Shown here: one piece after another, positions 1 to 44,630 of the stretch
Layout of the letters: each line of letters begins with the position of its first letter
Position numbering within the stretch: position 1 is the stretch's first letter
Assembly (NCBI GenBank): GCA_002688355.1
Contig: NZCT01000024.1
Span: forward strand, 177,762 to 224,511
Direction of reading: 5' to 3'
Length of the DNA stretch: 46,750 nt
Source of the DNA: an archaeon
Lineage (GTDB): Archaea; Nanobdellota; Nanobdellia; SCGC-AAA011-G17; GW2011-AR20
Position numbers and translations under genes: made by a program
The notes under the pieces: model-generated
What the model saw: only the letters and a program-made list of their open reading frames with translations
Database searches by the model: none
Told to the model about the DNA's origin: nothing

Positions 1-2303
1 AATAAAAATAAACTTAATCCAGTCATTAAAATTCCAATTAACAAAATATTATACCACATATTTCTAGAAACAATTCTTTCCTTAGGCTTCCTAGGTGCTT
101 TTTTCATAACACCTTCATCAGCACTATCTAATCCTAAAGCTAAAGCAGGAAAACCATCTGTAATTAAATTAACCCACAATAAATGTATAGCAATTAATGG
201 TATAGCAATATTTCCCCCAAACGTAAATCCAATTATTAAAGCAATAAATAAAATTAAAACCTCACCCATATTACTTGATAATAAATAATTAACAAACTTC
301 TTTACATTATCATAAATACTTCTTCCTTCTTCTATAGCACTTACAATAGTAGCAAAATTATCATCCAATAAAATCATATCAGAGCTCTCTTTAGCAACAT
401 CAGTTCCACTAACACCCATAGAAACACCTATATCAGCTTTTTTCAATGCAGGAGCATCATTAACCCCATCTCCAGTCATTGCAACAATCTCTCCATTATT
501 TTGTAAAGCATCAACAATTTTAATCTTATGCTCAGGATTAACTCTTGCATAAATATTATATTTGTTTATTACATCTTTCAAATGTTCTAGCTTATCAATT
601 TCCTGTCCAGTTAAAACTTTACCCTTTATACCTAACCTAGAACCAATTGCTTTCGCAGTTACAGCATGATCTCCAGTAATCATAATAACTCTAATTCCAG
701 CTTCTTTACATTTTCTAATTGCAACTTTAGCTTCCTCTCTTTCAGGATCTATCATACCTTGTAATCCAACAAAAATTAATTTATTTTCTTCTAGTTTATC
801 ACTTTCCTTATAAGCAAATCCTAAAACCCTTAAAGCATTTAATGCTAAATTCTCATTAACTTTCAAAATTTTATTTTTATCTTTCTCAGAAAGCTTTCTC
901 ACTTTACCATTTTCATAAATTCTATCACAAACACTCAAAATTTTTTCAGGAGCACCTTTAGACATAATCATATTTTTATTCTGCCATTTATGTAAAGTCG
1001 ACATCATTTTTCTTTCAGAAGTGAAAAATTCTTCTTTCAATCTTTTTCTTTTCTTCTCTAAATTCTTTTTATCAATTCCAAATTTTCCAGCACTTACTAA
1101 CAAAGAACCTTCTGTAGGATCTCCAATTAATTCATGATCATCTTGAAACAAAGCATTATTACATAAAACTCCAATCTCTAATAAAAATTCTAATTCTTTA
1201 TCATTAACTTCTTGATCTTTATACAAAAACTTACCTTCTTTATCATAACCAGATCCAGTAACATCAATCACTTTTCCATTAACATAAATTCTTTGTACAG
1301 CCATTTCATTTTTAGTTAAAGTCCCTGTTTTATCCGATCCGATAACAGTTATTGAACCTAAAGTCTCAACAGAAGGTAACTTTCTAATTAACGCATTTTT
1401 CTTAACCATTTTTTTAACACCAACAGCTAAAGAAATAGTAACAACAGCAGGCAATCCTTCAGGAACAGCAGCAACAGCTAAACTAACTCCAACTAATAAC
1501 ATTTCTAAAAAACTTCCGCCTTTTAACGTACCACCAACAAAAACAATTAAAGCAACAACAATTACAATATAACCTAAAGTTTTCCCTAATCTATTTAATT
1601 TAATTTGCAACGGAGTTAAAGTTTGTTCTGTTCCCTCAATTAAAGTAGCAATTTTACCTATTTCTGTTTTCATTCCAGTTCCAGTAACTACAGCTCTACC
1701 TCTGCCATTAACAACAGTAGTTCCAGAAAAAATCATATTATCTTGATCAGCTATTTCACAATTTTCTTTTATTGATTTAACATTTTTAGAAATAGGAATA
1801 CTTTCCCCAGTTAATGAAGCTTCTTGTGTTTGTAAACTATTATTTTCAATTATTCTAGCATCACAAGGAATCTTCTTACCAGTCTCTAAAACAATCACAT
1901 CTCCAGGAACTAAATCTTTAGAATCAATTCTTTTAATCTTACTTTCCCTAACAACTTCAATATGTAAACTACTTAATTTTTTCAAAGCCTGAATACTTTT
2001 CTCTGCCTTATATTCTTGAATAAAACCTAATACTCCATTCAACAACAAAATTGCTCCAATAACTATTGAATCTATAAATTCTTTAAAAAATAGAGAAATT
2101 ACTAAAGCTCCAATTAAAATATACACAACAAAACTCTTAAACTGATTAATAAAAATTTTAAAAGGGGAAATTCTTTTACCCTCTTTTAATTCATTTAAAC
2201 CATATTTTTGCAATCTTAATTTTGATTCCTCTTCACTTAAACCATCTTTAGAAGTTTTTAATTCTCTGAAAACATTATCAACATCTTTTTTATAAAAATC
2301 CAT
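1..2303 (-). CDS. P-type IIA (Ca2+-transporting-like) ATPase, 3'-truncated by window edge
   Basis: Not in ORF track. Manual translation from ATG at 2303 ([26 protein letters not shown]...) gives [47 protein letters not shown] and [15 protein letters not shown]. Confidence 0.95.
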
Positions 2304-2316
2304 AAATTAATATAAA

Positions 2317-2835
2317 TTATTTATTATTTAAATCTACCTTACACCCAACAAATAAATCTTTTGCTGTAAAGTAATAAGACAATCCCAATAAAATCATAAC
2401 ACTAATCCTTATTTCATTAATATATGTTGTAACAAAAGAAAATACACTTACACCTAACCCTCCAAGTAAAGTTATTATTGGAATTAATAAAGCTGAGCAA
2501 GTACATGTTCCCAAAAACAATCCAATAAAAGTTCCAAAAAAACCTCCAGAAGAATTTTTCTGAATTATTGGAGTCTTTAGTTTTACTTTACGATAAATTA
2601 TCATTGTAATTATTACACTTGAAATCAAAGGAACATATATTATATAGATCACATCTAAAAAACTAATAAAATTATTAAAATTAAATACAAACTTAGGAAA
2701 CAGAAATATTATTTGCATTAATATACCTAAAAAAAATAAAAAAATTATAAGAAGGAAAAAAAATAAAAAAAAATAATTTTTATTCTTCAAAACCAAAAGA
2801 CTATTCTTTATTAAATTCCCCATTTTAAAAAACAA
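2317..2835 (-). CDS. Multi-pass membrane protein with CxC motif, probable partner of the DsbA-like protein
   Basis: About 4 hydrophobic segments; GTCTCS in a membrane segment and GCK near the C-terminus; 14 bp downstream of the DsbA-like gene. Confidence 0.6.
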   Translation of the reverse strand: MFFKMGNLIKNSLLVLKNKNYFFLFFFLLIIFLFFLGILMQIIFLFPKFVFNFNNFISFLDVIYIIYVPLISSVIITMIIYRKVKLKTPIIQKNSSGGFFGTFIGLFLGTCTCSALLIPIITLLGGLGVSVFSFVTTYINEIRISVMILLGLSYYFTAKDLFVGCKVDLNNK

Positions 2836-2849
2836 AAAATTAATAGAAA

Positions 2850-3707
2850 TTAACTTTCTATTAAAGTATCTAAGATTTGTTTAAATGTTGAAAATGGTAA
2901 TGCTCCACTTACTTTAAATCCTAAAGCATTATTCAAATCCCCACAAACAGTACCTTGAGGATCACAAACATTTGCATCATAAGATATAGTATCACCATCT
3001 AACTTACCAATTATAAATCCAGGCGTACCACTTACTCCAGCATTATTCCCATCTTGGAAATCTTGATTTACTTCATCAAGATATTTCTGAGAGTCGTAAC
3101 AATCAGTAAATTGTCCAACATCCAAACCTACATCAGAAGCCCATTGTCTTAAGTTACCTTCACTCAAAGAACCTTGATTTTCAAATATTATGTCATGATA
3201 ATCCCAAAATTTACCTTGTTCATTTGCACACTCAGATGCCAATGCTGCAGGCATAGCTAAAGGATGAAAATCTAATGGAAAGTGTTTGTAAACAAATTTA
3301 ACTTTTCCAGAATTGATATATTCTTCTTTTAACTGCGGTAAAGCATTAGCATAAGCTCTTCCACAAAATGGACATTCAAAATCTGAAAACTCTATAATAG
3401 CAATTTCAGCATCTTCATCACCCAATACAGTTTCACCTGCTGCGCTTGCACTTAATATTAATTCTCCTCCAGACGGAACATTATTTCCTCCATTACCTAC
3501 AATAGCTCCAGATCCTCCATTTCCAGAATTAGAACCTTGAAATCCTCCAGTTAAAATACTTATTAAAAATAAAGCCATGAATATAAAACTCACAAACATC
3601 CACATTGTACTTTTCTTAAACGTTACAGTTTCTTCTTTTTTATTATTTATAACTTCTTTACTAGTTGAAACTTCTTCTTTTGAAACTTCTTTATCATTCT
3701 CTTCCAT
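2850..3707 (-). CDS. Membrane-anchored DsbA/DsbG-family thiol-disulfide oxidoreductase
   Basis: N-terminal TM helix, Gly/Asn linker, EFSDFECPFC active site, HFPL, GVSGTP cis-Pro, GALPF; GGAGG Shine-Dalgarno (SD) upstream. Confidence 0.9.
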   Translation of the reverse strand: MEENDKEVSKEEVSTSKEVINNKKEETVTFKKSTMWMFVSFIFMALFLISILTGGFQGSNSGNGGSGAIVGNGGNNVPSGGELILSASAAGETVLGDEDAEIAIIEFSDFECPFCGRAYANALPQLKEEYINSGKVKFVYKHFPLDFHPLAMPAALASECANEQGKFWDYHDIIFENQGSLSEGNLRQWASDVGLDVGQFTDCYDSQKYLDEVNQDFQDGNNAGVSGTPGFIIGKLDGDTISYDANVCDPQGTVCGDLNNALGFKVSGALPFSTFKQILDTLIES

Positions 3708-3809
3708 TAAAACCCCTCCAGATTTTTTAAAAGTAAAATGTTATTTATATACTTTACCTTTAATTATATTATAATTTTTATAGTAAAGATTAATAAATGT
3801 ATTGTTCAT

Positions 3810-5534
3810 TTATTCCAATAATAAATTACTAACATCACTTTTCTTTTTTAAGAATTTATTAACATCATAAGGAATTTTCTTTAAAGGTTTTGTACTTATT
3901 CTTATTCCATCCTCCTCAACATTACATATAATATTCATTTTCCATTTGTCTAAAGTTTCAGGAAAATCAACTCTATAATGAGCACCTCTACTTTCTTCTC
4001 TAAACAATGCACTTCTAATAATCATCTCACAAGTTGGTAACATATTTCTAATATCTAAAGCAGCTATTAAATTTTCATTCATTATTAAAGAATTATCAAC
4101 TTTAAATTTAAGTTTTTTATATTTATGTAATTTCTTCAAAGCTTTTTTCATATCTCTAGCTTTTCTTACAACACCAACATTTCTCCACATTAAATTTTGA
4201 ATATCCTTCTTAATCTTAATCGGATCTTTACCTCTTTCATTTCCTAATTTATGCATTATCTCCAAAACTTTATCATTAACTAAACTTTCATCTATCTTTG
4301 TAAATCTTATTGATTTTAATTCTTTTAAAATGTTTTTCCCTGTTAATTTTCCAAAAATAATAATCTCGGCCAGACTATTTCCACCTAATCTATTTGCGCC
4401 ATGAACTCCAGCTGTAACTTCCCCAATTGCAAATAAGTTCTTTATACTAGTTTTCCCAGTCTCATGATCAACATAAATTCCACCCATAGAGTAATGTGCC
4501 GTTGGAGCTACTTCCATCTTATCTTTAGAAATATCAACATTAACATAATCCTTAAACTGTTTATACATTCTAGGAATTCTTGATAAAATATATTTTTTAG
4601 GTTTGTAACTAATATCTAAATAAACACCTTTCTTTTTAGTTCCTCTTCCTTCTTTAATTTCATTATAAACAGCTCTAGCCACAACATCCCTAGCACTTAA
4701 CTCCATTTTTTCAGGAGCGTATTTTTCCATAAATCTTTGTCCTCTTTTATTTGTTAATATTCCACCTTCTCCTCTTACAGCTTCAGTAACAAGCAAACCT
4801 TCTGCTTCTTGAGGATAAACCATACCAGTTGGATGAAACTGAAACATCTCCATATCCATAAATTTAGCACCTAACTCATAGCCTAAAAAAATTCCATCTC
4901 CATTATTTTCCCAAAATCTTGAAGAACTTCTTTTATACATTCTAGAATGTCCACCAGTACATAAAACTACAATTTTACTATGGAAAATAATAAACTCACC
5001 ATTTCGAATATCTAATCCAATTGCACCATTAACTCTTCCCTTAGCATATAACAAAGAAACAATATAAATTTCATTTTTAAATCTTACTTCTCTTTTCAAA
5101 GTTTGATCAACTAATGAATCTAATATTGCCTTCCCAGTATAATCTCCAACAAAACAAGCTCTTCTATAAGTAGCAGCTCCAAAAAATCTTTGTGTAATCT
5201 TACCGTTAGTTTCTTTATGAAATTTAACTTTCCACTTTGCTAATTCTTTAACAGCGTCAGTCGCGTTTTTACATAAAACTTTGACAGCCTTTGCATCGTT
5301 AATATAGCCACCTTCTCGTATTGTATCAGCAGCATGTACTTGCCAAGAATCTTTTTTATCTAAGTTACCTAAAGCAGCATTTATACCTCCAGTAGCTAAA
5401 ATAGTATGTGCATCTCTCTTCTCGCATTTACCAACAACTAAAACATCTGCTTTATTGTCATGTAACTCAATAGCAACTCTCAAACCAGCTCCACCTGAAC
5501 CAATTATTAGAACATCAGATTTTTCAATATTTAT
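3810..5534 (-). CDS. Succinate dehydrogenase/fumarate reductase flavoprotein subunit (SdhA/FrdA/NadB family); true start uncertain
   Basis: AHTILATGG, QFHPTG, LVTEAVRGEGG, PTAHYSMGG, HGANRLGGNSL, ESRGAHYR. The frame stays open upstream of the tracked TTG (5483) through DVLIIGSGGAGL (FAD GxGxxG) to ATA at 5534, which is preceded by an in-frame TGA. Confidence 0.85.
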   Translation of the reverse strand: MNIEKSDVLIIGSGGAGLRVAIELHDNKADVLVVGKCEKRDAHTILATGGINAALGNLDKKDSWQVHAADTIREGGYINDAKAVKVLCKNATDAVKELAKWKVKFHKETNGKITQRFFGAATYRRACFVGDYTGKAILDSLVDQTLKREVRFKNEIYIVSLLYAKGRVNGAIGLDIRNGEFIIFHSKIVVLCTGGHSRMYKRSSSRFWENNGDGIFLGYELGAKFMDMEMFQFHPTGMVYPQEAEGLLVTEAVRGEGGILTNKRGQRFMEKYAPEKMELSARDVVARAVYNEIKEGRGTKKKGVYLDISYKPKKYILSRIPRMYKQFKDYVNVDISKDKMEVAPTAHYSMGGIYVDHETGKTSIKNLFAIGEVTAGVHGANRLGGNSLAEIIIFGKLTGKNILKELKSIRFTKIDESLVNDKVLEIMHKLGNERGKDPIKIKKDIQNLMWRNVGVVRKARDMKKALKKLHKYKKLKFKVDNSLIMNENLIAALDIRNMLPTCEMIIRSALFREESRGAHYRVDFPETLDKWKMNIICNVEEDGIRISTKPLKKIPYDVNKFLKKKSDVSNLLLE

Positions 5535-5570
5535 TCAAATCACCTCTCCTATATAATAAAAAATTGAATA

Positions 5571-5587
5571 TTAATAAATTTATGTTT
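5571..5587. repeat. 17-bp direct repeat copy 1 (TTAATAAATTTATGTTT), BRE/TATA-like on minus strand
   Basis: Identical to 6543-6559; the two copies bracket the 304-aa ORF. Confidence 0.7.
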
Positions 5588-5603
5588 CTTGATTTAATCA
5601 TTA

Positions 5604-6518
5604 TTATATTAATTTAGGAGTCATATTTTCATTCCATTCTAACAAAGGTACCAATTTATATGATATAAAATGTTTAACGTCTATATAAATAAAATTTGGA
5701 ATTATTGGTTTTTTGATCATTATCTCAGCAGGTTGTTCTACATGACTTTGTAATATAAATGTTATAGGCACATAGACATTTCTACAAAAATTTTCTATAT
5801 CTTGTTTAAAATTATCCACTCCGCCATAAGAGCTACCAAGTTTAAGATATACTCTATTTAAGAATTGTTTTAAATAATTATAATAAAAATTCTCAAAACT
5901 ATTAATGTAATCAGGTAAATCAAGATATTCTAAGAACGATGAATCAAGTTTTACTTGCAACAGTATAGCTCTATTCTTTTTTCTTAAAATTTTCCCAAAC
6001 CTAAATGCAACTTTTAAAAAATCTTTTTCTTCCTCTGTCAAGAAATTTTCTTTTTCTCTTAAATGTTCTATATCCCATGTAGCTTGCATATATTCTTCAT
6101 CCAATAATTCATATATGAATGAAGGTAAATCAACTGCAGAACCCACTTTTTTAACATTTTCAGTTGTTGCAAAATACAGTGGTTTTGAACTCATATCTGC
6201 AGTTATATCTTGATGCCAACCTTCAGTAGAAGATCCTCCTTTTGCTAATATCTTAGATATATTTTCTATTGCTCTTTTCATACCTTTTGGTAATCTTGAT
6301 GTGTCTAAACCATATTTTTTTATAAAAGGTAATAATAATATACTTGTACCATGATACAACCATGCTGATTTATCTTTAATATTATCATTCCATAATTTTG
6401 AGATAAAGATATAATGTTCTTCAACAAATTTATCTATGTCTATACTTTCAAGATATTTTCTATCTACATTTTTTATAATTTCACTCTTGAAATCTTCTTT
6501 AATTTTTTCAATAGACAT
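5604..6518 (-). CDS. Orphan protein with ADP-ribosyltransferase-like (H-Y-E) motifs
   Basis: WLYHGTS...IKKYGL, LYFAT, AILLQVKL and AEIMIKKPIIP occur in the order expected for ART-fold strands. Confidence 0.55.
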   Translation of the reverse strand: MSIEKIKEDFKSEIIKNVDRKYLESIDIDKFVEEHYIFISKLWNDNIKDKSAWLYHGTSILLLPFIKKYGLDTSRLPKGMKRAIENISKILAKGGSSTEGWHQDITADMSSKPLYFATTENVKKVGSAVDLPSFIYELLDEEYMQATWDIEHLREKENFLTEEEKDFLKVAFRFGKILRKKNRAILLQVKLDSSFLEYLDLPDYINSFENFYYNYLKQFLNRVYLKLGSSYGGVDNFKQDIENFCRNVYVPITFILQSHVEQPAEIMIKKPIIPNFIYIDVKHFISYKLVPLLEWNENMTPKLI

Positions 6519-6542
6519 TTTAAAACAATAATCATTATTGAT

Positions 6543-6559
6543 TTAATAAATTTATGTTT
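6543..6559. repeat. 17-bp direct repeat copy 2
   Basis: Identical to 5571-5587; about 25 nt upstream of the ATG at 6518 (minus strand). Confidence 0.7.
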
Positions 6560-6560
6560 T

Positions 6561-7313
6561 CTAATTGCTCGAGTTTTCCCACAAAACATTAAAAATCTTG
6601 ATTTGAGTTCTCGCAAAATTTTCATCCTTTATCAATAATGCATAGGGCTTCTCACCTTGACTAAGAAAATAAACATAATCACCTGCAACTCCAAATTCCA
6701 TTTCCACTTGATCATTCGTATATTTAATTTCAATATATTTTAATTTCTCTCTTTCTTTTCCATGTTCTTTAACATTTTTTGGAACGATTAATCGTTGATG
6801 AACCTTTTTTTTAATTCTAGGCCCATGGAAATATTCTAATAGAAATGCATTCCATTTACTATAAGCAATAGGTGCAGAAGATATGTAAACATTAGAATTA
6901 ATATTCCAACTTTCTGTAAACTCATTAAACATAGATTTAACTCCTCTCAATCCTTCAAAATATTTAAAATCATTTTCTTTACTCTCTTTGATTTCAATAG
7001 TCTTTAATTTATCTACAAATTCTTTTAAATCCTCTCTTTCTTTTTCTAATTGTTTTTCTTTTTCTCTTATAATTGTAAACAAATTTTCAGGATTAACAGA
7101 TCTATACACCTTCACATTATTAGTTATTTTAAAACTAATGAGTCCACTATCAAGTAATTTTCCTAGGATATCATATATATGTGAACGAGGGATCTTCTCT
7201 TTAGAACATATAACTCCTGCTTTTGCTTCTTTATGTTGTAATAGAAATAAATATACCTTTGATTGAACTTGTGTAAGTCCGGTATTTTGTAATTTTTCAA
7301 TTATATCTTTCAT
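6561..7313 (-). CDS. TrmB-family transcriptional regulator
   Basis: GLTQVQSKVYLFLL...IPRSHIYDILGKLLDSGLI winged HTH, NPENL, coiled coil, FEGLRGVKSMF, PLD-like C-terminal domain. Confidence 0.9.
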   Translation of the reverse strand: MKDIIEKLQNTGLTQVQSKVYLFLLQHKEAKAGVICSKEKIPRSHIYDILGKLLDSGLISFKITNNVKVYRSVNPENLFTIIREKEKQLEKEREDLKEFVDKLKTIEIKESKENDFKYFEGLRGVKSMFNEFTESWNINSNVYISSAPIAYSKWNAFLLEYFHGPRIKKKVHQRLIVPKNVKEHGKEREKLKYIEIKYTNDQVEMEFGVAGDYVYFLSQGEKPYALLIKDENFARTQIKIFNVLWENSSN

Positions 7314-7322
7314 TTTAATATA

Positions 7323-7386
7323 GCTACACCAATAAGAGGTAGCAAGTATTTAAATACTCCTTTTAAGCTTATTACTATAAAGTAAA
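7323..7386. promoter_or_regulatory. Divergent promoter region with palindromes (candidate TrmB operators)
   Basis: GCTAC-N11-GTAGC (7323-7343), perfect AGTATTTAAATACT (7345-7358, contains a TATA box), TTACT-N5-AGTAA (7372-7386). Confidence 0.45.
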
Positions 7387-7411
7387 GACAAACGTTCAAG
7401 GAGGAACAAAA

Positions 7412-7843
7412 ATGACAAACATAAAATATAAAATAGGAAACATTGTTGGAGAATTACCAACAAAAGAAGGTATGGATAGTCACAAATTCGTAGTTATGGC
7501 ACGTGAAGAAGAGAATGATCTTGAGTTAGTCCTTAACTCTGAAATACTTCCAACAGAAGGCAGTGGACCATTCGCAAGGGAAAGTAACCTATTACATGCA
7601 GAAATCGTGGATAAAAATCCAGGTGGAAGATGTGTTGGCGGAGGAAAAATAACATATAGTGAATATGATGATACGTCAATAATCGCGGGAGAATCAACAG
7701 GCTATGGAATAGTTCATTCAAACGTAAGAGAGATTTTCGGAAAATTGTTATCTGAAGAGTATAAACTTAAGGAGTTTGATTCAGGTTATATTGAAAAGGA
7801 AAAAAACGAAGCATGGATTAAAAGACACAATATAAAGCTTTAA
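7412..7843 (+). CDS. Janus/Ocnus (14-kDa phosphohistidine phosphatase)-like protein
   Basis: HKFVVM, HAEIVDK, CVGGGKI, IAGESTGYG match the PHP14 pattern KYVL, HADI, CLGGGRI, YGYSxxYG; AGGAGG SD upstream. Confidence 0.65.
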   Translation: MTNIKYKIGNIVGELPTKEGMDSHKFVVMAREEENDLELVLNSEILPTEGSGPFARESNLLHAEIVDKNPGGRCVGGGKITYSEYDDTSIIAGESTGYGIVHSNVREIFGKLLSEEYKLKEFDSGYIEKEKNEAWIKRHNIKL

Positions 7844-7856
7844 TTCAGGAATTTCA

Positions 7857-7885
7857 AGGAGAATAATTTCTCCTCTTCTTATTTT
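7857..7885 (+). terminator. Hairpin plus pyrimidine tract after the Janus-like gene
   Basis: AGGAGAA-TAAT-TTCTCCT perfect 7-bp stem followed by CTTCTTATTTT. Confidence 0.5.
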
Positions 7886-8022
7886 ATATAATCAATTATT
7901 TCCAAAAACACTTATTTAAATTCTTTATGTTTCATTTCAACACTCTTGTATTAATAAATTCTCAAATATTACAAATAAACTCTCTAAAAACATTTATATA
8001 ATTCTTCAAACTAAAAATACTA

Positions 8023-31895: not shown

Positions 31896-33281
31896 ATGCC
31901 TTTAAAATTATACAACACACTAACAAGAAAAAAAGAAATATTCAAACCAATTAAAAAAAATTCTGTTGGCCTTTACACTTGTGGTCCTACTGTTTACAAT
32001 TACGCTCACATTGGAAACCTAAGAACTTACATATTCGAAGATATCTTAAAAAGAGTTTTACTTTACAACAAATACAAAGTCAAACATGTAATGAATATTA
32101 CAGATGTAGGTCATTTAACTTCTGATTCAGATACAGGACAAGATAAAATTGAAAAAGCATCTAAAAAAGAAAATAAAACAGCATGGCAAATTGCTAAGTT
32201 CTACACAAAAGCATTCCTAGAAGATACAAAAAAATTAAACATATTAAAACCAGATATAACTTGTAAAGCAACAGATTACATAAAAGAACAAATAGATTTA
32301 ATAAAAATTTTAGAAGAAAAAGGTTATACTTATGAAATTGAAGATGGAATTTATTTTAACACTTCTAAACTAAAAGATTATGGGAAATTAGCAAAGCTAA
32401 AAATAGAAGAATTAAAAGAAGGTGCTCGTGTTGATGTAGTTAAAGGAAAAAAGCATCATGCAGATTTTGCTTTGTGGAAATTTTCTAAAGAAAGAAGACA
32501 AATGGAATGGCCCTCCAAATATGGCATTGGCTTCCCAGGTTGGCATATAGAATGTTCAGCAATGTCCATGAAATATTTAGGAGAAACTTTTGACATACAT
32601 TGTGGAGGTATAGATCATATTCCAGTTCATCATACAAATGAAATAGCACAAACAGAAGCAGCAACAGGAAAAAAATTCGTAAATTATTGGTTACATGGAA
32701 ATTTCATTGTTCTAAAAGATGATATAAAAATGGCCAAGTCAGGAGAGAACTTCATAACATTAAAAGCATTAGAAGATCAAGGATACACTCCAGAAGATTA
32801 TAGATATTTAACTTTAACTGCAAATTACAGAAAACCAATAATGTTTAGCGAAGAAGCTTTAGAAGGTGCAAAAAATTCTTTAGATAAACTAACAACAAAA
32901 ATATTAGAAATAAAAGCTACAACAAATGAAAGTAATGGAAAAACAGACAAATATGAAAAATTATTTGAAAAAGCAATTAATGATGATCTTAACACACCAA
33001 AAGCATTAGCAATTTTATGGGATTTAATAAAAGATCAAAAAGTAAATAATAAAACAAAATATGATTTAATCTTAAACTTCGATAAAATTTTTGGTTTAAA
33101 TTTAAAAAATATTAAAAAATCTTTAATACCTCAAGAAATAAAAGATTTAGCAGATAAAAGAGAAAAAGCAAGGAAAGAAAACAATTGGGATCTTGCAGAT
33201 ACAATAAGAGACAAAATAACAAAAAAAGGTTATTCAATCGAAGATTCTAATTCAGGATATAAAATAACAAAAAATGTATAA
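31896..33281 (+). CDS. cysS: Cysteine-tRNA ligase
   Basis: [47 protein letters not shown]. Confidence 0.97.
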
Positions 33282-33528
33282 AACAATGTTAAAAGCCAGT
33301 ATAATTGGCTATACTCTTGGCGCAGCAATAACTGCTATCTCTGGAATGTGTTTACTAAAATCAGAAATCTATGAAAGATATGGTCTAGAACATATAGTTA
33401 AAGATTCAAAAGAAGATAAAATAATGTTTAACAGTCTAACAACAGGTCTTGCTATTTATTTAACCTCTTTAATTCCTCACGGAATAGCATATTCAAAGCT
33501 CAATAAAGAAGAAAATCTTGAACAATAG
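33274..33528 (+). CDS. Small two-TM hypothetical protein
   Basis: 84 aa, two hydrophobic segments, overlaps the cysS stop. Confidence 0.55.
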
Positions 33529-33558
33529 TTTTTTAAAGCTTAATATTTCTATTTTCCT

Positions 33559-33975
33559 ATGGTAACTATATATGATGTAGACACAAATAAGCTAATAGAA
33601 TCAGCTAGTGAAGAAATGAAAAAGCTAGTTAAAGCTCCAGAATGGACAAAATATGTTAAAACAGGTGTTGGAAAAGAAAGAGCACCTATTGACATAGATT
33701 GGTATTACAAAAGAACTGCAGCAATTCTAAGAAAAGTATATATGCGTGGTCCTCTAGGAACAAATAAATTAAGAACATTATTTGGAAATAGAAAAAATAG
33801 AGGCATGCAACCTGAAAGATTTCGTAGAGGTTCTGGTAAAATTATAAGAACTTCACTACAACAACTAGAAGAAGCAAAACTAATCAAAAAAGGCTCAAAG
33901 GGAACTCATAAAGGTCGTTTAATAACAAATGAAGGAGTTAAATTCCTAGATTCAATAGCTAAAAAAGTAAAATGA
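33559..33975 (+). CDS. rps19e: 30S ribosomal protein S19e
   Basis: PEW..VKTG..KERAP...DWYY.R.A, GSGKIIR..LQQLE. Confidence 0.97.
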   Translation: MVTIYDVDTNKLIESASEEMKKLVKAPEWTKYVKTGVGKERAPIDIDWYYKRTAAILRKVYMRGPLGTNKLRTLFGNRKNRGMQPERFRRGSGKIIRTSLQQLEEAKLIKKGSKGTHKGRLITNEGVKFLDSIAKKVK

Positions 33976-34304
33976 ATGATTTAGATAAATTAAAACAAGA
34001 AAAACTTAAAGAATTACAACAAAATTTAAATCAACAACCACAAGAAAATATACAACAAGAAACACAAATTCAAGATCAAATTAATCAACTAGAAATATTA
34101 ATAAAAAAATACTTAACAAGAGACGCATTATTAAGATATGGAAATATAAAAACAGCAAGTCCAGAAAAAGCAATACAAACATTAACAGTATTAGCACAAT
34201 TAATTCAATTCAAAAAGGAAAACGAAAAAATTTCAGACCAAGAACTTAAAGAAGTATTAATAAAAATACAAGAACCAAAGAAGGAATTTAACATAAGAAA
34301 ATAA
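33972..34304 (+). CDS. PDCD5/TFAR19-like DNA-binding protein
   Basis: LTRDALLRYGNIK..PEKA, ISDQELKEVL, FNIRK; conserved position after rps19e. Confidence 0.88.
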   Translation: MNDLDKLKQEKLKELQQNLNQQPQENIQQETQIQDQINQLEILIKKYLTRDALLRYGNIKTASPEKAIQTLTVLAQLIQFKKENEKISDQELKEVLIKIQEPKKEFNIRK

Positions 34305-34305
34305 A

Positions 34306-34479
34306 ATGGCAAAATTTAAACCACTGGCGAAAAAATTACGTTTAGCAAAGAAGGGTAAACAAACAAAGTGGGCACCATTCTGGACAGTTCAAAAAATTTA
34401 CGGTAGTTCTAGAAGAGTTCATCCAGGAAGACATACTCATGTAAAAAGACATTGGAGAAGATCAAATACTGACGCATAA
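34306..34479 (+). CDS. rpl39e: 50S ribosomal protein L39e
   Basis: Not in track (57 aa): MAKFKPLAKKLRLAKKGKQTKWAPFW...KRHWRRSNTDA; directly before rpl31e. Confidence 0.93.
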   Translation: MAKFKPLAKKLRLAKKGKQTKWAPFWTVQKIYGSSRRVHPGRHTHVKRHWRRSNTDA

Positions 34480-34480
34480 A

Positions 34481-35035
34481 ATGGCACCTTTAGAAAGACT
34501 ATACACTGTACCTTTAAGAAAAAGATTTCTAAAAGGACCTAAATATAGAAGAACAAGAAAAGCAGTTATAGCCTTAAGAGAATTTATACAAAAACATATG
34601 AAATCTGAAGATGTTAGAATAGGTTCTCATTTAAATTTGGAAATGTGGAAACATGGTAAACAAAATCCACCATCAAGAATAAAAGTCAAAGCAATTAAAG
34701 ATACTGAAAAAGTAAAAGATAAAGACGTAGAAATAGTAAGAGTTGAATTACCCCATATTAAAATAGAAACTAAAAAGGAAGACAAGAAAGATGATAAAAA
34801 GAAAACAGATAAAAAAGAGGAAAAAGTAGAAACTCCTAAAATAGAAGATAAAAAGGAAGAAACTAAAGAAACAAAACAAGAGAAAGAAAAGAAAGAAGTA
34901 TTAGAACATCCTGATAAAGAAAAACCAACAGTAACAACAGAGAAAAAACAAGCTACAAAAGAACAAGAAACATTACAAAAAACAAAGAAAATAATTTCAG
35001 CAACAGAGAAACCAATTCACGAAAAGAAAAAGTAA
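34481..35035 (+). CDS. rpl31e: 50S ribosomal protein L31e with K/E-rich C-terminal extension
   Basis: ERLYTVPLR, RKAV..LREF..KHMK, LN..MW..G...PP.RIKV. Confidence 0.95.
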   Translation: MAPLERLYTVPLRKRFLKGPKYRRTRKAVIALREFIQKHMKSEDVRIGSHLNLEMWKHGKQNPPSRIKVKAIKDTEKVKDKDVEIVRVELPHIKIETKKEDKKDDKKKTDKKEEKVETPKIEDKKEETKETKQEKEKKEVLEHPDKEKPTVTTEKKQATKEQETLQKTKKIISATEKPIHEKKK

Positions 35036-35067
35036 ATCTTATATAACCTTATTCTACTAATAATAAC

Positions 35068-35355
35068 ATGATAGAAAAAGAACAAGTTATAGAATATTTG
35101 AAACAAGTCCAAGATCCTGAGTTAAATATAGACGTCTGGACATTAGGTTTAATTTACGATATTAAAATAGCTGAAGATGCTTTAAATATTCAAATGACAT
35201 TTACTACTCCAATGTGTCCCTACGGACCAACATTAGTTGAAAGCATTAAAATGAAACTACTTTCTCTAGAGAAGATTAATCAAGTAGATGTAGAAGTAGT
35301 TTTTGATCCACCTTGGCAACCTAATGACGAATTAAGAGCAATGTTAGGTGTATAA
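35068..35355 (+). CDS. Metal-sulfur cluster assembly factor (DUF59/SufT-like)
   Basis: VQDPELNID...LGLIY, TFTTPMCP, VFDPPW. Confidence 0.93.
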   Translation: MIEKEQVIEYLKQVQDPELNIDVWTLGLIYDIKIAEDALNIQMTFTTPMCPYGPTLVESIKMKLLSLEKINQVDVEVVFDPPWQPNDELRAMLGV

Positions 35356-35359
35356 AAAC
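35331..35359. repeat. 29-bp direct repeat copy 1 (3' end of DUF59 gene)
   Basis: ATTAAGAGCAATGTTAGGTGTATAAAAAC; 28/29 identical to 36675-36703. Confidence 0.92.
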
Positions 35360-35363
35360 AAAA

Positions 35364-36623
35364 TTATTCTAAATTTTTTATTATTCTTTTGTAAATTTCA
35401 AATTCTTCCTTAGATAAACACAAATCCTTTGTTGGCCAGAAAGGATCTACATCTTCTCTATTCAGTATGGAAGTTGCTTCAGGAATAATATCTTTTATAG
35501 ATTGAAGTGCCTCTGTGAATATTCCTTTCATAATTAAATCTTCAAAGTTTTCTCCACGACCAGAATCATTAGTTAAAGAATATAAATTTAGACAGCTTGA
35601 ATGCCCATAACCTGCTATGTGATGAGTTAAACTCCAAATATGTTTCTCAGGATATCTTTCACGAACTAAACTATTATTTACTATCCTTGATTGATAATCA
35701 TTATAGATAATTCCAATACAATTTTGTTGAATTTGTAGTTTTTCCTCAAACCCAATTAGCAATCTACTTTGTTCCCATAATTGATAAAGTCCTTTAATAT
35801 CAACCACTTTGGATGCATATTCTATAACATCGTTTCGTATCTGTTCTATCTTTTCTGAATCCATTAACAATATAGAAAACTGTTCCTTTGTTTGAGAGTT
35901 TCCAATTTTATAATTTGAATTCACAGGGATTAGTTTATTCTGGAAATTATAATTCGTTTCATCATGAATAAATACAATAACATCGTTAAGAAATATCCTT
36001 GATGCTTTCTTTTCATTCTTAGAAATTCCAATATCATTATGGTCTGACCAAATAATTAGCGCTCTTGGGTACACAGAAAATAAATAATGTTGCCAAAATC
36101 TCTTTTCATGTTCATCCATATTAGGATTATCATCTAAATTAAGGGATTCAACTACTCTATAAATAGTATCCAACATATTTAGACTATATTCTTCAGAATG
36201 TTCCTTTGATTTCTGAGTTAATTCTTTTTCTATTGAATTAATTACTTTATTTACATTATCCATATCTACAGTAGAGCTTTCAATCTTTTTCTCTAATTCA
36301 TTCATCATTTCAATTAATCCTTCTCTATCATTTTCATTCTCAAAATAAAATATTGATCTATTTTGTAAATCTTTTTTATTCATTAAATCAATTAAGCTTG
36401 CTTTAAATGTTTTGAAATAACTATCTAATTGATTTTTATCATGATCGTCTTTCTGTACATGCTCAACTAAACTAATTAAATTACTTTCTGTATTTTCAAC
36501 ATAATGCAAAAGGTTATCTTTATCCTCTAGATTGTCTCTTTCTATATGATCTTTAATCTGAGCTAAGTGAACATTTATATTTTTAAGGAAATGTAATAGT
36601 TCTTGAATTGCCGTAATCTTCAT
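35364..36623 (-). CDS. Orphan 419-aa protein inside direct-repeat-bounded insertion
   Basis: Long ORF with GAGGTGA SD and its own TATA-like box; helical N-terminus; no recognisable family. Confidence 0.8.
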   Translation of the reverse strand: MKITAIQELLHFLKNINVHLAQIKDHIERDNLEDKDNLLHYVENTESNLISLVEHVQKDDHDKNQLDSYFKTFKASLIDLMNKKDLQNRSIFYFENENDREGLIEMMNELEKKIESSTVDMDNVNKVINSIEKELTQKSKEHSEEYSLNMLDTIYRVVESLNLDDNPNMDEHEKRFWQHYLFSVYPRALIIWSDHNDIGISKNEKKASRIFLNDVIVFIHDETNYNFQNKLIPVNSNYKIGNSQTKEQFSILLMDSEKIEQIRNDVIEYASKVVDIKGLYQLWEQSRLLIGFEEKLQIQQNCIGIIYNDYQSRIVNNSLVRERYPEKHIWSLTHHIAGYGHSSCLNLYSLTNDSGRGENFEDLIMKGIFTEALQSIKDIIPEATSILNREDVDPFWPTKDLCLSKEEFEIYKRIIKNLE

Positions 36624-36674
36624 TCACCTCTTTAAATTATATAAATTATTGATATAAAAAGTTATCTCAAAAGG

Positions 36675-36703
36675 ATTAAGAGCAATGTTAGGCGTATAAA
36701 AAC
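36675..36703. repeat. 29-bp direct repeat copy 2 (displaced DUF59 3' end)
   Basis: ATTAAGAGCAATGTTAGGCGTATAAAAAC; encodes LRAMLGV-stop like copy 1, with one synonymous change. Confidence 0.92.
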
Positions 36704-36739
36704 TAAAATTATTTAAAACATAATAATTATTCTTTTAAT

Positions 36740-37444
36740 ATGTATGAATATTTAATTGGTAATTTAGGTTTAGGATTAATGTGGCTATTTCTATATATTA
36801 AAAATAATAATTTAAGAAAAGAAATGATTTACGGAGGTATTCTATATGTTTCTATAATAGCACCAACAATAATTATAACAAAACTATTATCGTATTTCAC
36901 ACAAATAACTTGGAGATATGTACCAGATTATTTTAACCCACATACATTATTTAATTTAAGTAGGAAAACTGGAATTTTATCAATAGAAGATATATTATTC
37001 ATGTTCTTAGCAGGAGGGATTATTGTTACAATCTATGAAATAATATTTAAAAAAGAAATAATTAAAACACATAAAAAACACCACATCTTAGCATTGATCT
37101 CTTTCTTTTCAAGTTACATAATTATAGCATTAATTTTTAGTTTTAATCCAATATATAATTTAATCATATCAAGTTTTATTGGTTTTTTAGTCATAACATT
37201 TCAAAGATCAGATTTAATCAAACACTCAGTTTACGGAGGAATAGCATTCACAGTTCTTTGGTTTATCTTAGTAATATTATTTAATATAGTATTTCCAAAT
37301 GTACTTCAAGAAGGGTTCTGGAACTTAAACAATATAAGTGGAATCCTAATGTTAAAAGTTCCTATAGAAGAATTATTATATGCATTTACTTTTGGATTGA
37401 TGTTTGCACCAATGTATGAATATATTAAAGGTTATAAGAACTAA
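36740..37444 (+). CDS. Membrane protein with two lycopene-cyclase (CrtYc/d-like) domains
   Basis: Two repeated halves ending SIEDILFMF and VPIEELLYAF; W....SGI motif. Confidence 0.65.
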   Translation: MYEYLIGNLGLGLMWLFLYIKNNNLRKEMIYGGILYVSIIAPTIIITKLLSYFTQITWRYVPDYFNPHTLFNLSRKTGILSIEDILFMFLAGGIIVTIYEIIFKKEIIKTHKKHHILALISFFSSYIIIALIFSFNPIYNLIISSFIGFLVITFQRSDLIKHSVYGGIAFTVLWFILVILFNIVFPNVLQEGFWNLNNISGILMLKVPIEELLYAFTFGLMFAPMYEYIKGYKN

Positions 37445-38283
37445 TTCTCATTAAACTTCTTCTCTAAAAAATAAACCAATACGAATCCAACTAATCCAAA
37501 TAAAATAACTAAAAATAAACTACTATTAGAATTAACAATATTTCTCCAAGGAATTCTCAAAGAACCCAACATTAATCCAATCAAAAAAGATAAAGTCAAA
37601 AACTTAAACCTCCTTAATAAAAGATCTAAAACCCTAGAAAATATTAACAATCCAGAAATAGCACCTAAAAAAAACACAAAAATAACTTTAATTCTAAAAT
37701 CATGTAAAACATCAATTAAATACTGATATTGATTTAACAATAATAAAATAAAAGCTCCTGAAATCCCTGGCAAGATCATAGCACTTATAGCTAACACTCC
37801 AGAAATAAATATCACAAATAAAGAATGATTAACTTGTAAAGCAGAAAATCCAGCAATAAAATAAGCAAAGAAAAACCCAATTATAGAAAATATTAATCTT
37901 TTATAATTTAGTTTATCAACATGTGTATACAAATACAATGAAGAACCTAATATTAATCCAAAGAAAAATCCAAATGTAATTCCAGTATATTTATCGAGTA
38001 AAACATTAATAATTCCAGATATAAAAAAAACAGCTATTGAAATACCCAATCCTAAGGGAATAAACAATCCAAAATCTATTTTTCTAAATTCTTTAATAAG
38101 ATCTTTAAACTTAAACTTTAAAATTAATAAAATAAATTTAACCAAAAAACTAATAGAACCTATCAATCTTTCATATATCCCAGTTATTAATGCAATAGTA
38201 CCTCCAGAAACACCTGGAACAACATCAGCACTTCCCATAAACAAACCTCGTAAAAAAATAAGAAAACTTTCTTTTAATTTCAT
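37441..38283 (-). CDS. DUF368 membrane protein (polyprenyl-phosphate translocase family)
   Basis: MGSADVVPGVSGGTIA.ITGIYE, AMILPGISG, GLMLGSL..PW. Confidence 0.92.
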   Translation of the reverse strand: MKLKESFLIFLRGLFMGSADVVPGVSGGTIALITGIYERLIGSISFLVKFILLILKFKFKDLIKEFRKIDFGLFIPLGLGISIAVFFISGIINVLLDKYTGITFGFFFGLILGSSLYLYTHVDKLNYKRLIFSIIGFFFAYFIAGFSALQVNHSLFVIFISGVLAISAMILPGISGAFILLLLNQYQYLIDVLHDFRIKVIFVFFLGAISGLLIFSRVLDLLLRRFKFLTLSFLIGLMLGSLRIPWRNIVNSNSSLFLVILFGLVGFVLVYFLEKKFNEN

Positions 38284-38333: not shown

Positions 38334-39323
38334 ATGGAAAACTTATTACCGTTTGAGAAAATTGAAAGAGAATTATTAGTTAAAGTAGATGCTAAAACAG
38401 ATCCAAATTATGGTCAAGATCCTAATAAAAGACCAATTAAAGAGTTAATTAGCTATGGAATCATAAATCTAAACAAACCAGAAGGTCCAACTTCCCACAT
38501 GGTCTCAGCTTACGTTCAAAATATTCTAGAAATAAATAAATCTGGACACTCAGGTACCTTAGATCCTCTTGTCGTAGGAGTTTTACCAATAGCTCTAGAA
38601 AAAGCAACAAGAATAGTCCAACCCCTACTAAAAACTGGAAAGGAATATGTTTGTTTAATGCAGATACATAAAGATGTAAAAGAAGAAGATATTAAAAAAA
38701 CAATGGAAAAATTCTTAGGAAAAATTAAACAATTACCTCCAGTAAAATCAGCAATTAAAAGACAAGAAAGAACTAGAGAAGTTTATTATTTTGATATCCT
38801 AGAAATAAATAAACAAAATGTTCTATTCAAAGTTGGTACAGAAGCAGGGACTTACATCAGAAAATTAGTTCATGATTTTGGTCAAGAACTAAAAGTTGGT
38901 GCTCACATGAAACAACTAGTAAGAACAAAAGTAGGTTCATTTAATGATGAAACATGGATAACATTACAAGACTTAAAAGACGCTTACGAATTATACAAAA
39001 ACGAAAATAATGAAGAAGAACTAAAAAAATGTATCTTACCAATAGAATCAGCAGTCCAACATCTACCAAAAATTTACGTTCTCGATTCGACAGTTGATTC
39101 AATTTGCAATGGAGCTAATCTTAACATCCCGGGAATCTCTAAATTAGATTCAAATATAAAAGAAAACGATCAAGTAGCAATCTTAACATTAAAAAAAGAA
39201 CTAGTATGTTTAGGTGTAGCAAAAACAACATCTGAAAACATTCTAAAAAACTATCAAGGTCTCTCCGTAGACGTAAAAAAAGTATTCATGTCCTCTGGAA
39301 TATATCCTAGATATAATAAATAA
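38334..39323 (+). CDS. cbf5: H/ACA pseudouridine synthase Cbf5
   Basis: NKPEGPTSH, GHSGTLDP, KEYVC, QLPPVKSA, AGTYIRKL, PUA domain. Confidence 0.97.
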   Translation: MENLLPFEKIERELLVKVDAKTDPNYGQDPNKRPIKELISYGIINLNKPEGPTSHMVSAYVQNILEINKSGHSGTLDPLVVGVLPIALEKATRIVQPLLKTGKEYVCLMQIHKDVKEEDIKKTMEKFLGKIKQLPPVKSAIKRQERTREVYYFDILEINKQNVLFKVGTEAGTYIRKLVHDFGQELKVGAHMKQLVRTKVGSFNDETWITLQDLKDAYELYKNENNEEELKKCILPIESAVQHLPKIYVLDSTVDSICNGANLNIPGISKLDSNIKENDQVAILTLKKELVCLGVAKTTSENILKNYQGLSVDVKKVFMSSGIYPRYNK

Positions 39324-43220: not shown

Positions 43221-44525
43221 TCACTTAGGAATATCCTTTACAGCATCTTCAAAAAGATCCAAACCATAATCAGCTTGTTTTTTATTAATTATTAATGGTG
43301 GACACATTCTAATAACATTATTTCCACAACCTAATAAAACTAAACCTTTCTCACTAGCTTTACACAATATAGAATGTCTTTCTTTAATCCCATAGTTCTT
43401 ACTTCTTTTATCTTCAACAATCTCTACACCAATCATTAACCCCTTACCTCTAACATCACCAATAACGTCATATTGGTCTTTCATTTCATTTAATCTTTTC
43501 ATCATGTAATTTCCTATTTTTAGTGCGTTATCACCTAATTTATGTTTCCTCATATAATTTAATGTAGCCATTCCAGAAACACAAGCTAATAAATTCCCAC
43601 CAAATGTTGTACTATGCGAACCAGGAATCCAATCCATAGTTTTCTTATTAGCTAATGTTACCCCCAAAGGAATCCCTCCTCCAATAGCTTTACTCAAAGA
43701 AACAATATCAGCTTTAACATTATAATTCTCAATAGCTAAAAATTTACCAGTTCTATAACAACCAGCTTGAATTTCATCTGAAACTAACAAAACATCATAT
43801 TTATCACAAGCTTTTCTTAAACCTTTAACAAAACTTTTTGGAGGAACTACATAACCCCCTTCCCCAGAAATTGGTTCAAGAAATACAGCTGCTAGCTCTT
43901 TTTTTAATTTTTTAATACTCTTTTCCCAAGCATCCAAACAATGATTAGATAGATCTTCCTCATCTTCAAATTTACTCCTATAAAAATAAGGGTAAGGAAC
44001 ATGTTTAACTGGCAAAAAAGGGTTAAATCTTTCTCTTTGAACTTTCTTAGAATTTGTCATAGATAAACTTCCCATTGATCTACCATGAAAACAAATATCA
44101 GAAGCTATTAACCATTTCTTATTAGTATGCCACTTAGCTAATTTTAAAGCACATTCATTACTCTCAGTTCCAGAGTTACTCAAAAAAACATTATTCAAAT
44201 GTTTAGGAACAAATTTTAACAAATTCTCAATAAAATTAACAGGAATTTCAGCATAAAAATCTGGAAAAGCACAATGAAAACCATCTTTCATTTGTTTCTT
44301 AACAGCCTTTATCACTTCACTATTCGCATGACCAACAGAATTAACAGCAACTGAAGCAGCAAAATCTAAATATTTTCTTCCATCAACATCCCATAAGTGC
44401 ATTCCTTTACCTTTCTTAAATACAAAACTATACTCCCTATTGTAACTTGAACTAACTACTTTCCTATCTCGAAAAATTATATCAACACTCTTTTTTCCAG
44501 GTTTTTTACAAATGTACTTTGACAT
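43221..44525 (-). CDS. Class III PLP aminotransferase (ornithine/GABA/diamine omega-aminotransferase group)
   Basis: WDVDGRKYLDF, NSGTE, FHGRS, EPISGEGG, DEIQAG..RTG, SKAIGGG, TTFGGN. Confidence 0.93.
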   Translation of the reverse strand: MSKYICKKPGKKSVDIIFRDRKVVSSSYNREYSFVFKKGKGMHLWDVDGRKYLDFAASVAVNSVGHANSEVIKAVKKQMKDGFHCAFPDFYAEIPVNFIENLLKFVPKHLNNVFLSNSGTESNECALKLAKWHTNKKWLIASDICFHGRSMGSLSMTNSKKVQRERFNPFLPVKHVPYPYFYRSKFEDEEDLSNHCLDAWEKSIKKLKKELAAVFLEPISGEGGYVVPPKSFVKGLRKACDKYDVLLVSDEIQAGCYRTGKFLAIENYNVKADIVSLSKAIGGGIPLGVTLANKKTMDWIPGSHSTTFGGNLLACVSGMATLNYMRKHKLGDNALKIGNYMMKRLNEMKDQYDVIGDVRGKGLMIGVEIVEDKRSKNYGIKERHSILCKASEKGLVLLGCGNNVIRMCPPLIINKKQADYGLDLFEDAVKDIPK

Positions 44526-44629
44526 TATATCTTCATAGTCCTCTCTTTTCCACCTTTCTTATAAATTCTATATCTTCTCTTAGCTTTCTTATCGCCTTTA
44601 CTTTTTCTTCTTCCATCTGGATCATTCAT
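44525..44629 (-). CDS. 34-aa Lys/Arg-rich small ORF
   Basis: MNDPDGRRKSKGDKKAKRRYRIYKKGGKERTMKI; begins 1 nt after the ALDH stop and ends in a TAATG overlap with the aminotransferase start. Confidence 0.6.
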   Translation of the reverse strand: MNDPDGRRKSKGDKKAKRRYRIYKKGGKERTMKI

Positions 44630-44630
44630 T

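Follow-up and report, generated by a model that had tools for sequence, protein, structure and literature searches.

A single-gene insert between two copies of a gene's end in a small archaeal genome

How does a gene come to stand at the very end of another gene, leave that gene intact, and show no enzyme of its own that could have placed it there? The question is raised by a 46,750-nt stretch of archaeal DNA (the window; G000:C24:177762-224511), in which one antisense gene lies between two copies of the tail of a DUF59 gene. The genome, G000, comprises 962 kb in 32 contigs and is 97% complete; it was assembled from a metagenome, is present in marine metagenomes, and has a GC content of 27% overall and 22-33% locally. 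A sequence-only reading of the window had proposed a cassette integrated at a protein-coding gene's end without an integrase, either mobilised in trans or captured as a circle. We put at about 0.6 the probability that a cassette of one gene entered the junction between the DUF59 gene and a 234-aa gene and duplicated its target, likeliest through homology with incoming DNA that carried a copy of the target. The features of the locus are as follows.

35068..35355, plus strand: target gene, DUF59 / FeS_assembly_P, 95 aa, intact; an open reading frame (ORF) matching Pfam PF01883 at 1.9e-15 and ending in repeat copy 1
35331..35373, plus strand: direct repeat copy 1, on the live DUF59 gene; last 25 nt of DUF59 including the stop, and 18 nt of spacer; gapped reach to 35391 possible
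35364..36623, minus strand: cargo gene, 419 aa; sole ORF of at least 60 aa between the copies; single-copy in G000
36624..36674, minus strand: cassette-borne upstream region of the cargo gene; GAGGTGA abutting the ATG, T/A-rich TATA-like strings at most 40 nt upstream
36675..36717, plus strand: direct repeat copy 2, a displaced DUF59 pseudo-tail with stop and spacer; gapped reach to 36737 possible
36740..37444, plus strand: original downstream neighbour, a 234-aa lycopene-cyclase-domain membrane protein; Pfam PF18916 at 6.4e-17

The ungapped repeat measures 43 nt at 86% identity, and its copies lie 1344 nt apart. Within the first 29 nt, 28 positions are identical, and the sole mismatch (GGT/GGC) is synonymous in the DUF59 frame, just as the sequence-only reading had described. 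Where that reading gave an extent of about 38 bp, the match is 43 nt solid and ~62 nt when gapped, spacer included. The gapped local alignment pairs 35331-35391 with 36675-36737 and contains three gaps; copy 2 then ends 2 nt short of the next gene's ATG (36740), and the duplication thus takes in the intergenic spacer. The insert itself, ~1.28 kb with a GC content of 0.24-0.30 that is no different from the flanks, holds one ORF, without a Pfam family. The stop and the last two codons of this antisense ORF fall inside copy 1. The region at 36624..36674, with the TATA-like strings and the GAGGTGA that had been reported for it, is a putative promoter region of the cargo gene. The promoter of the 234-aa gene likely sits in repeat copy 2.

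The repeat is real, and neither chance nor misassembly accounts for it. For the gapped alignment the score is 77, whereas 2000 random 150-nt windows of G000 reach 42 at most and average 21.2 (sd 4.5); the 25-nt core is found at just two places in the 962-kb genome. The longest exact run common to both copies is 18 nt, which should be too short to confuse a k=31 assembly graph. Run X1 yields a Logan contig that is identical to the window over 33000-36790, both copies and the insert included, and this rules out the misassembly that had been named as a possible refutation; X1 may be the source sample, so that this contig speaks for an independent assembler and not for a second sample. From other samples, runs X2, X3, and X4 yield identical short contigs inside the insert (35391-35697, 35720-36007, 36064-36227, and 36472-36633).

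Contigs of X2, X3, and X4 also join 36387, in the region encoding the N-terminal domain (N-domain) of the cargo protein, to 39315, at the end of the Cbf5 gene, with 7 other letters between; this joint is seen in one of two joint tables. Its origin may be a relative in which the region is arranged differently, or a misplaced AT-rich alignment.

What did the junction look like before? In G047, a distant relative of the same order whose DUF59 protein is 49% identical, the DUF59 stop is followed by 32 nt and then by the ATG of a homologue of the 234-aa gene (L019), whose product begins with the same residues, MYEYLI. In the window, the pseudo-tail stop (36698-36700) is followed by 39 nt and then by the ATG of the 234-aa gene, a spacing in line with that of the G047 junction. 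Because of the G047 junction, we take copy 2, the spacer, and the 234-aa gene as the old right flank, and the DUF59 gene with copy 1 as the old left flank. On this comparison of sequences, a piece of ~1.28 kb is placed between the old flanks at the DUF59 end. DUF59 homologues are found in 27 of the 61 genomes searched, the own genome counted. A homologue of the 419-aa gene is found in one of 60 relatives (G010), at another site, and only its N-terminal 110 residues match. Thus, the relatives do not share the arrangement; had they all carried it, this would have spoken against an insertion.

The DUF59 case is not singular, and a scan for other gene-end duplications finds about nine in G000. We compare G000 with itself by blastn and keep hits on the same strand and contig with a spacing of 250-8000 and a length of at most 400. 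This yields 43 hits, against 0 in each of five third-order-Markov simulated genomes, and the hits fall into five classes.

Both copies inside ORFs (internal repeats, paralogues): 15 of 43 hits
Internal repeat reaching the ORF end: 1 of 43 hits
Array of ~70-85-aa genes on C5: 8 of 43 hits
Repeated operon junctions on C26: 5 of 43 hits
Repeat bracketing a unique insert: 14 of 43 hits, at 11 loci, repeats of 30-62 nt

Nine of the 11 bracketing loci have a copy that contains the stop codon of the flanking gene, for which the chance expectation with 45-nt segments is 4.6%; the copy on C9 has two of the three stop bases. The nine loci are the following.

C24 213092 (DUF59 locus): 43-62 nt; DUF59 tail; cargo 419-aa orphan
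C9 2507/3243: 42 nt, 100%; ferredoxin tail; cargo VapB and PIN
C4 10996/11511: 30 nt, 100%; VIT1 tail; cargo 64 aa and ParE
C25 81081/81645: 51 nt, 49/51; NUDIX tail; cargo 145-aa orphan
C1 16980/17451: 30 nt, 29/30; tail of a 241-aa gene; cargo 119-aa orphan
C32 17443/21066: 48 nt, 45/48; HTH-CBS tail; cargo five ORFs including a TrmB regulator
C32 20489/22002: 43 nt; tail of a 93-aa gene; interleaved with C32 17443/21066
C24 29854/31501/32202: three copies; tail of a 242-aa gene; cargo YoeB-like and DUF2283 pairs
C16 4709/5567: 48 nt; junction with start codon and promoter; cargo aldo/keto reductase between Lgt and S6e

The named cargo at the bracketed loci consists mostly of toxin-antitoxin pairs. 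The repeat boundaries are sharp at C9 and C4, and at C9 the PIN stop codon forms the first three bases of the repeat, paralleling the 419-aa ORF that ends in copy 1. Among 240 genomes of the order, four carry the 145-aa cargo of C25, and it is absent from all 26 others of its own family. The G207 homologue is likewise bracketed by an upstream gene's tail with the stop and a terminator-like hairpin, in three copies that enclose two cassettes. The same pipeline applied to a G010 sample (287 kb, 21 stretches) gives 18 hits; in four of them a copy covers a stop codon, and a fifth is a cassette at a start codon whose cargo belongs to the family of the 419-aa protein. Therefore, enzyme-less gene gain recurs in G000 and is not a one-off; mobility itself is not shown.

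Several repeat structures lie beside these loci. In the three-copy array on C24 (L052:2630-2790 and 3398-3560; G000:C24:30630-31558), the YoeB-like pair is flanked by a 36-codon ORF on one side and by a broken duplicate of that ORF (164 nt, 78% identical) on the other, which makes a nested duplication. At G000:C5:1-3500, a dozen ORFs of ~70-85 aa have repeated stop-to-start junctions, on a 21-kb contig that also carries a Xer-like tyrosine recombinase gene (L036:1459-2043); this array could belong to an element resembling a plasmid or a virus, or consist of cassettes. At G000:C26:14507-23657, a T/A-rich junction of 55-61 nt that ends in ATG is present four times, before successive operons of predicted membrane proteins, with spacings of 3350, 2258, and 3489 nt; the copies could be promoters repeated before paralogous operons, or they could mark a further cassette array. 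In G010:C16 (L074:298-2769), four intergenic copies of a 23-25-nt palindromic element, spaced 570-1240 nt apart, resemble a repeat-delimited series of cassettes.

The cargo family of the DUF59 locus is itself bracketed at other sites. On contig C46 of G010 (L032), which is syntenic with the window, an ORF at 2184-3281 encodes a 365-aa homologue whose N-terminal 114 residues are 45% identical to the cargo protein. The gene lies between 37-nt direct repeats (2089-2125 and 3959-3995; 36/37 identical), the second of which forms the first 12 codons (the start codon and 11 more) of a class-III aminotransferase gene. The orthologous aminotransferase gene of the window (43221-44525, minus strand) begins at the stop of a small upstream ORF and carries no insert. 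The junction being uninterrupted, the window provides the empty site for the G010 insert.

44490..44630, minus strand: empty counterpart of the G010 cassette site; aminotransferase start codon overlapping the stop of the small upstream ORF; assigned by synteny

In both G000 and G010, the cargo ORF has the displaced copy on its upstream side and the live-gene copy beyond its stop, an agreement of two cases that has a one-in-two chance. A third family member, P0006, encoded on metagenome contig L046, lies between 40-nt repeat copies at 3353-3392 and 4876-4915. On the same contig, a third copy (672-711) follows the stop of another gene, and a 281-nt upstream module is likewise repeated.

The G010 cassette also holds a gene for an IS200-type Y1 transposase (L032:3290-3900, 152 aa, Pfam 8e-28) with GC-rich, hairpin-like flanks. 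A metagenome contig from the same organism (L045) ends just past this gene. We considered IS200 as the agent and rejected it: the Y1 transposase is found in the G010 cassette but nowhere in the G000 genome, and we read it as a later, secondary insertion. A 108-aa protein, P0008, matches the G010 cargo protein over its first ~70 residues and then diverges, which suggests a disrupted or rearranged allele of the G010 gene in another data set. Elsewhere on the G010 contig (L032:9700-9770), the gene for the Cbf5 pseudouridine synthase is split into two ORFs of 81 and 250 aa, with ~21 extra bases containing in-frame stops after the conserved GTL codons and before those for DP(A)VTG. The orthologue in the window (38334-39323) is uninterrupted. 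Mini-introns are known in crenarchaeal cbf5 mRNAs, and the break could be a mini-intron or a sequence error.

What does the cargo encode? An exhaustive search of 1.84 billion representative proteins at E <=0.001 returns 10 matches, including the 419-aa protein itself, and a word-index search returns the protein itself only. Residues 1 to ~115-140 are common to seven proteins (P0004, P0005, P0006, P0007, P0008, P0009, and P0011), among which P0005 is the G010 protein and P0008 its truncated form. This N-domain contains an invariant pair of histidines seven positions apart, H19 and H26. An AlphaFold2 model computed from the seven sequences is a four-helix bundle with a pLDDT of 89 and a pTM of 0.82. 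Foldseek finds no match to this model at E <=0.001; the best hits, at 0.42, are the Avd protein of a diversity-generating retroelement and a plant inhibitor. The best VIA-align Z score of 10.7 is in the range of generic helical bundles, and no family is assigned. Two further proteins, P0010 and P0012, have no N-domain and align over their full length to residues 115-419 at 22-23% identity, indicating a free-standing C-terminal module. No alignment is obtained among the C-terminal parts of the N-domain proteins, and the whole-protein model is poor (pLDDT 50, with the C-terminal module <50). The N-domain profile is found in 4 of 240 genomes of the order. The cargo family is rare, patchy, and modular, with a constant N-domain head and swapped C-terminal tails.

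The 419-aa protein has no match in Pfam, PADLOC, or PHROGs, and NCBIfam gives only a far-sub-threshold match. A free-standing homing endonuclease gene with a duplicated gene tail would encode a nuclease (LAGLIDADG, GIY-YIG, HNH, or PD-(D/E)XK); the same four resources find no such family in the cargo, but a nuclease fold may be hidden in the C-terminal module, whose model is unusable (pLDDT <50). No restriction or methylase family matches. Three leads were dropped. RloB/OLD-like names from the ESM Atlas reach a best score of 0.79, which is noise level, and are not used; the C-terminal part of P0006 looks methyltransferase-like by eye, and Pfam finds nothing there; and for a viral origin, IMG/VR holds neither a relative of the gene family nor a copy of the repeat. 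With low confidence, the cargo is most likely a selfish or defence-type gene, because of the toxin-antitoxin company it keeps, its patchy distribution, and its swapped C-terminal domains.

If the cassette brought no enzyme, where could one come from? No recombinase-like feature is found in the cassette by Pfam, NCBIfam, PHROGs, or PADLOC, in keeping with the proposal of an insertion without an integrase. The scan for a Xer or tyrosine recombinase suggested along with that proposal gives four PF00589 matches in G000, none of them in the window: one fragment and three full Xer-like ORFs, whose scores of 127, 34, and 29 bits fall far short of the NCBIfam XerA cut-off of 220. The nearest tyrosine recombinase match lies ~190 kb from the cassette on the same contig. 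Family scans, in which DDE transposase families were not searched one by one, find no transposase or Cas1 at the insert. Among 24 inverted-repeat pairs listed, none pairs the two insert ends. In addition, repeats measure anywhere from 30 to 62 nt depending on the locus, unlike the fixed stagger of a transposase. The repeats of different loci have no common core by eye, no formal motif search having been made, and an 8-mer common to two of them is by our estimate within chance.

The preferred reading may be laid out in steps. The ancestral layout would have been the DUF59 stop, a spacer of ~35-40 nt, and the ATG of the lycopene-cyclase-domain gene. A piece of ~1.28-1.30 kb, with one gene and its own expression signals, would have entered this junction. 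Both sides of the insert now show the terminal 25 nt of DUF59 together with 18 nt or more of spacer. The tail being duplicated, DUF59 keeps its C-terminus and stop, and the downstream gene keeps its upstream region. Because the cassette is without a recombinase and is one of about nine such duplications in a 0.96-Mb genome, the mechanism would be supplied by the cell or by another element. The probable route is recombination of the chromosome with circular or ends-in linear DNA already bearing a short copy of the target, carried out by the host homologous recombination machinery or by a trans-acting recombinase. Entry of this kind explains tandem arrays in which one tail copy is common to two cassettes. 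By the same route, a cassette could be excised as a loop and then inserted at the corresponding site of a relative that had none. The first unit of tail plus cargo would need a rarer, illegitimate event.

A number of observations weigh against this reading. The recombination route is read solely from the anatomy of the locus. Adjacency of DUF59 and the 234-aa homologue is found at only one of the 26 DUF59 loci of relatives, so that the sole empty-site comparison concerns gene order only, in one distant relative. In G010, the nearest relative (DUF59 70% identical), an unrelated antisense VTT-domain gene follows DUF59. The region is variable, and the empty-site evidence at the DUF59 locus is indirect. 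The extent of the repeat past 35373, in the AT-rich part beyond 43 nt, is less certain. Moreover, the C-terminal residues of the cargo that are encoded past the 43-nt repeat align with the C-termini of the free-standing homologues, which suggests that this part is native to the cassette. Three of the six N-domain loci (one in G066 and two in G067) have no flanking repeat of at least 20 nt at good identity. The enrichment at gene ends may reflect survival of harmless insertions instead of targeting. As for the captured circle or mobilisation in trans, the four public runs contain no 1344-bp skip corresponding to the empty site and no circle joint (0 of 12 joints listed), their contigs being of low depth so that absence is not established; the insertion itself is supported, its movement is not. 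The same cassette sequence occurs in samples from 2014 to 2023, and the cassette may be a fixed scar that is no longer mobile.

Site-specific integration is the first alternative to be weighed. Here, the insert would be a minimal or decayed integrative element, an islet like a cis-mobilizable element (CIME), with the copies as attL and attR and a tyrosine recombinase acting in trans from the genome or from a helper virus or plasmid. Tyrosine-recombinase elements typically leave repeats of this length (30-62 nt) at the 3' ends of genes. Crenarchaeal att sites measure 29-69 bp, and 14 of 68 thaumarchaeal integrated elements lie in the 3' ends of protein genes (PMC6563490). The four PF00589 matches in G000 would provide candidates for the enzyme, and the tandem arrays with common repeats resemble accretion at an att site (PMC5704250). 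However, about nine unlike repeats demand many specificities, and G000 has only the three full Xer-like ORFs, all below the cut-off and none beside the window cassette. Furthermore, the 1.28-kb, single-gene insert has no remnant of integration or transfer genes, and no viral contig in IMG/VR carries the gene or the repeat. We regard site-specific integration as unlikely, but as a live rival.

A one-off repair scar is an unlikely account but likewise a live one. Foreign or translocated DNA would have been captured at a break or a stalled fork, illegitimate, replication-based repair would have copied ~40-60 nt of the target twice, the repeats would play no further part, and the cassette would be immobile. 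A like process, with double-strand breakage suggested, has been proposed for long target duplications at restriction-modification genes (PMC2853133), and both the variable repeat length and the failure to see an empty site or circle in the four low-depth runs fit it. However, the three-copy arrays (C24 29854/31501/32202, G207, and L046) demand repeated, independent accidents at exactly one place, and different genomes carry members of the same cargo families in settings of this kind.

An integron-type cassette, or a remnant of a cluster of attC sites lacking an integron integrase (CALIN), with an attC- or attI-like site in the repeat, is very improbable. Both integrons and integrase-less attC clusters have been described from archaea, Nanoarchaeota among them, and they commonly contain toxin-antitoxin cassettes (preprint 10.1101/2022.02.06.479319). 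Both copies at the DUF59 locus contain GTTAGGY, which fits the integron core GTTRRRY, but such a motif is present in both copies of only one of 12 repeat sets, about what chance predicts at 1.9 per kb in the genome. The repeat regions fold no better than shuffles on either strand and in either copy (z +0.4 to +0.8), with no attC-like hairpin, and Rfam gives no match at E <=0.1 in 34000-38000. The repeat is host gene sequence and not a conserved cassette-borne site, and there is neither an array at the DUF59 locus nor an adjacent integrase. Finally, an artefact or chance, meaning a low-complexity AT-rich match or a misjoined bin such as a 27% GC genome from a metagenome assembly might produce, is scarcely credible against the alignment score of 77 (maximum 42), the absence of hits in simulated genomes, and the spanning contig with identical pieces in other samples.

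Entry of a one-gene cassette by homology at the DUF59 junction thus remains our preferred reading. A broader proposal, which we consider improbable, is that ultra-small archaea use a general, recombinase-free cassette exchange. In such a scheme, a small circle would bear a host gene's tail as its address, enter by host recombination at 30-60 nt of identity, stack with others, and loop out again, and the main riders would be toxin-antitoxin pairs and polymorphic genes such as the family with the four-helix N-domain. If true, this would define a separate and as yet unnamed class of mobile elements, and genomes poor in conventional mobile elements would have in it a main route of gene flow. In archaea of the DPANN group, genomes are tiny and the gain of accessory genes is poorly understood; G000 has about nine small inserts at gene ends, mostly of addiction type, each bracketed by a 30-62-nt duplication and lacking an enzyme of its own. 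Members of two of the cargo families turn up in comparable settings elsewhere, in other genomes and at different sites. The junctions expected of an empty site and of a circle are defined and can be searched for in reads.

How does the DUF59 cassette compare with known systems? Insertion sequences, transposons, and casposons differ from it in having a transposase or Cas1, terminal inverted repeats, and a short duplication of fixed length. Integron cassettes and CALINs in Archaea are likewise small, often single-gene, and promoter-poor, carry toxin-antitoxin cargo, and occur in integrase-less clusters; unlike them, the insert has no attC-like fold (an imperfect palindrome of ~55-140 nt with R'' and R' cores) and no conserved cassette-borne site, its repeats being host gene tails (10.1101/2022.02.06.479319). 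With the archaeal integrated elements of Krupovic et al. 2019 (PMC6563490) it has in common the archaeal host, the restored 3' end of a protein gene, and similar att lengths; the flanking repeats there are ascribed to a tyrosine recombinase or a casposase, whereas the 1.3-kb cassette encodes neither. A CIME is an integrated element that has lost its integrase and transfer genes and kept attL and attR (PMC5704250). Like a CIME, the cassette has direct repeats containing the target gene end, no recombinase inside, and, at sister loci, tandem accretion at the repeat. However, CIMEs decay from integrative and conjugative or mobilizable elements and rely on the cognate integrase of a related element, whereas here we find a compact, single, intact orphan gene without remnants, and repeats without a common core.

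The closest published description is insertion with long target duplication, of which the DUF59 cassette would be an archaeal, non-restriction member, its mechanism unproven. Insertions of this kind are reportedly the subject of a cited work by Nobusato et al. from 2000. Furuta, Abe and Kobayashi 2010 (PMC2853133) describe restriction-modification inserts with long, variable target duplications and no other mobile element; the duplications often cover a start or stop codon and leave the target intact, the hosts are mostly naturally competent bacteria, and double-strand breakage is proposed. The screen of that survey leaves zero archaeal cases, and our full-text search of the literature finds no archaeal description; supplements of the cited papers, which lay outside the search, might list cases. 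As in that kind, the insert is short (<20 kb), has no mobility or mobile-element genes in or beside it, is flanked by target-derived direct repeats of more than 30 bp (here 43 nt solid), and belongs with selfish or addiction-type cargo, which is restriction-modification there and toxin-antitoxin at the sister loci here. In contrast, the host is an archaeon, the cargo is not the restriction-modification genes that served as the search criterion there, the repeats measure 30-62 nt here and up to several hundred nt there, and about nine loci, some of them arrays with a common repeat, occur in one 0.96-Mb genome. Measured by the empty-site comparison used in PMC2853133, the DUF59 locus has the G047 gene order and not an empty site of the same species, whereas the sister case in G010 has its empty site in the window. 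On this comparison, a little-studied kind of bacterial insertion would extend to archaea and to cargo other than restriction-modification genes.

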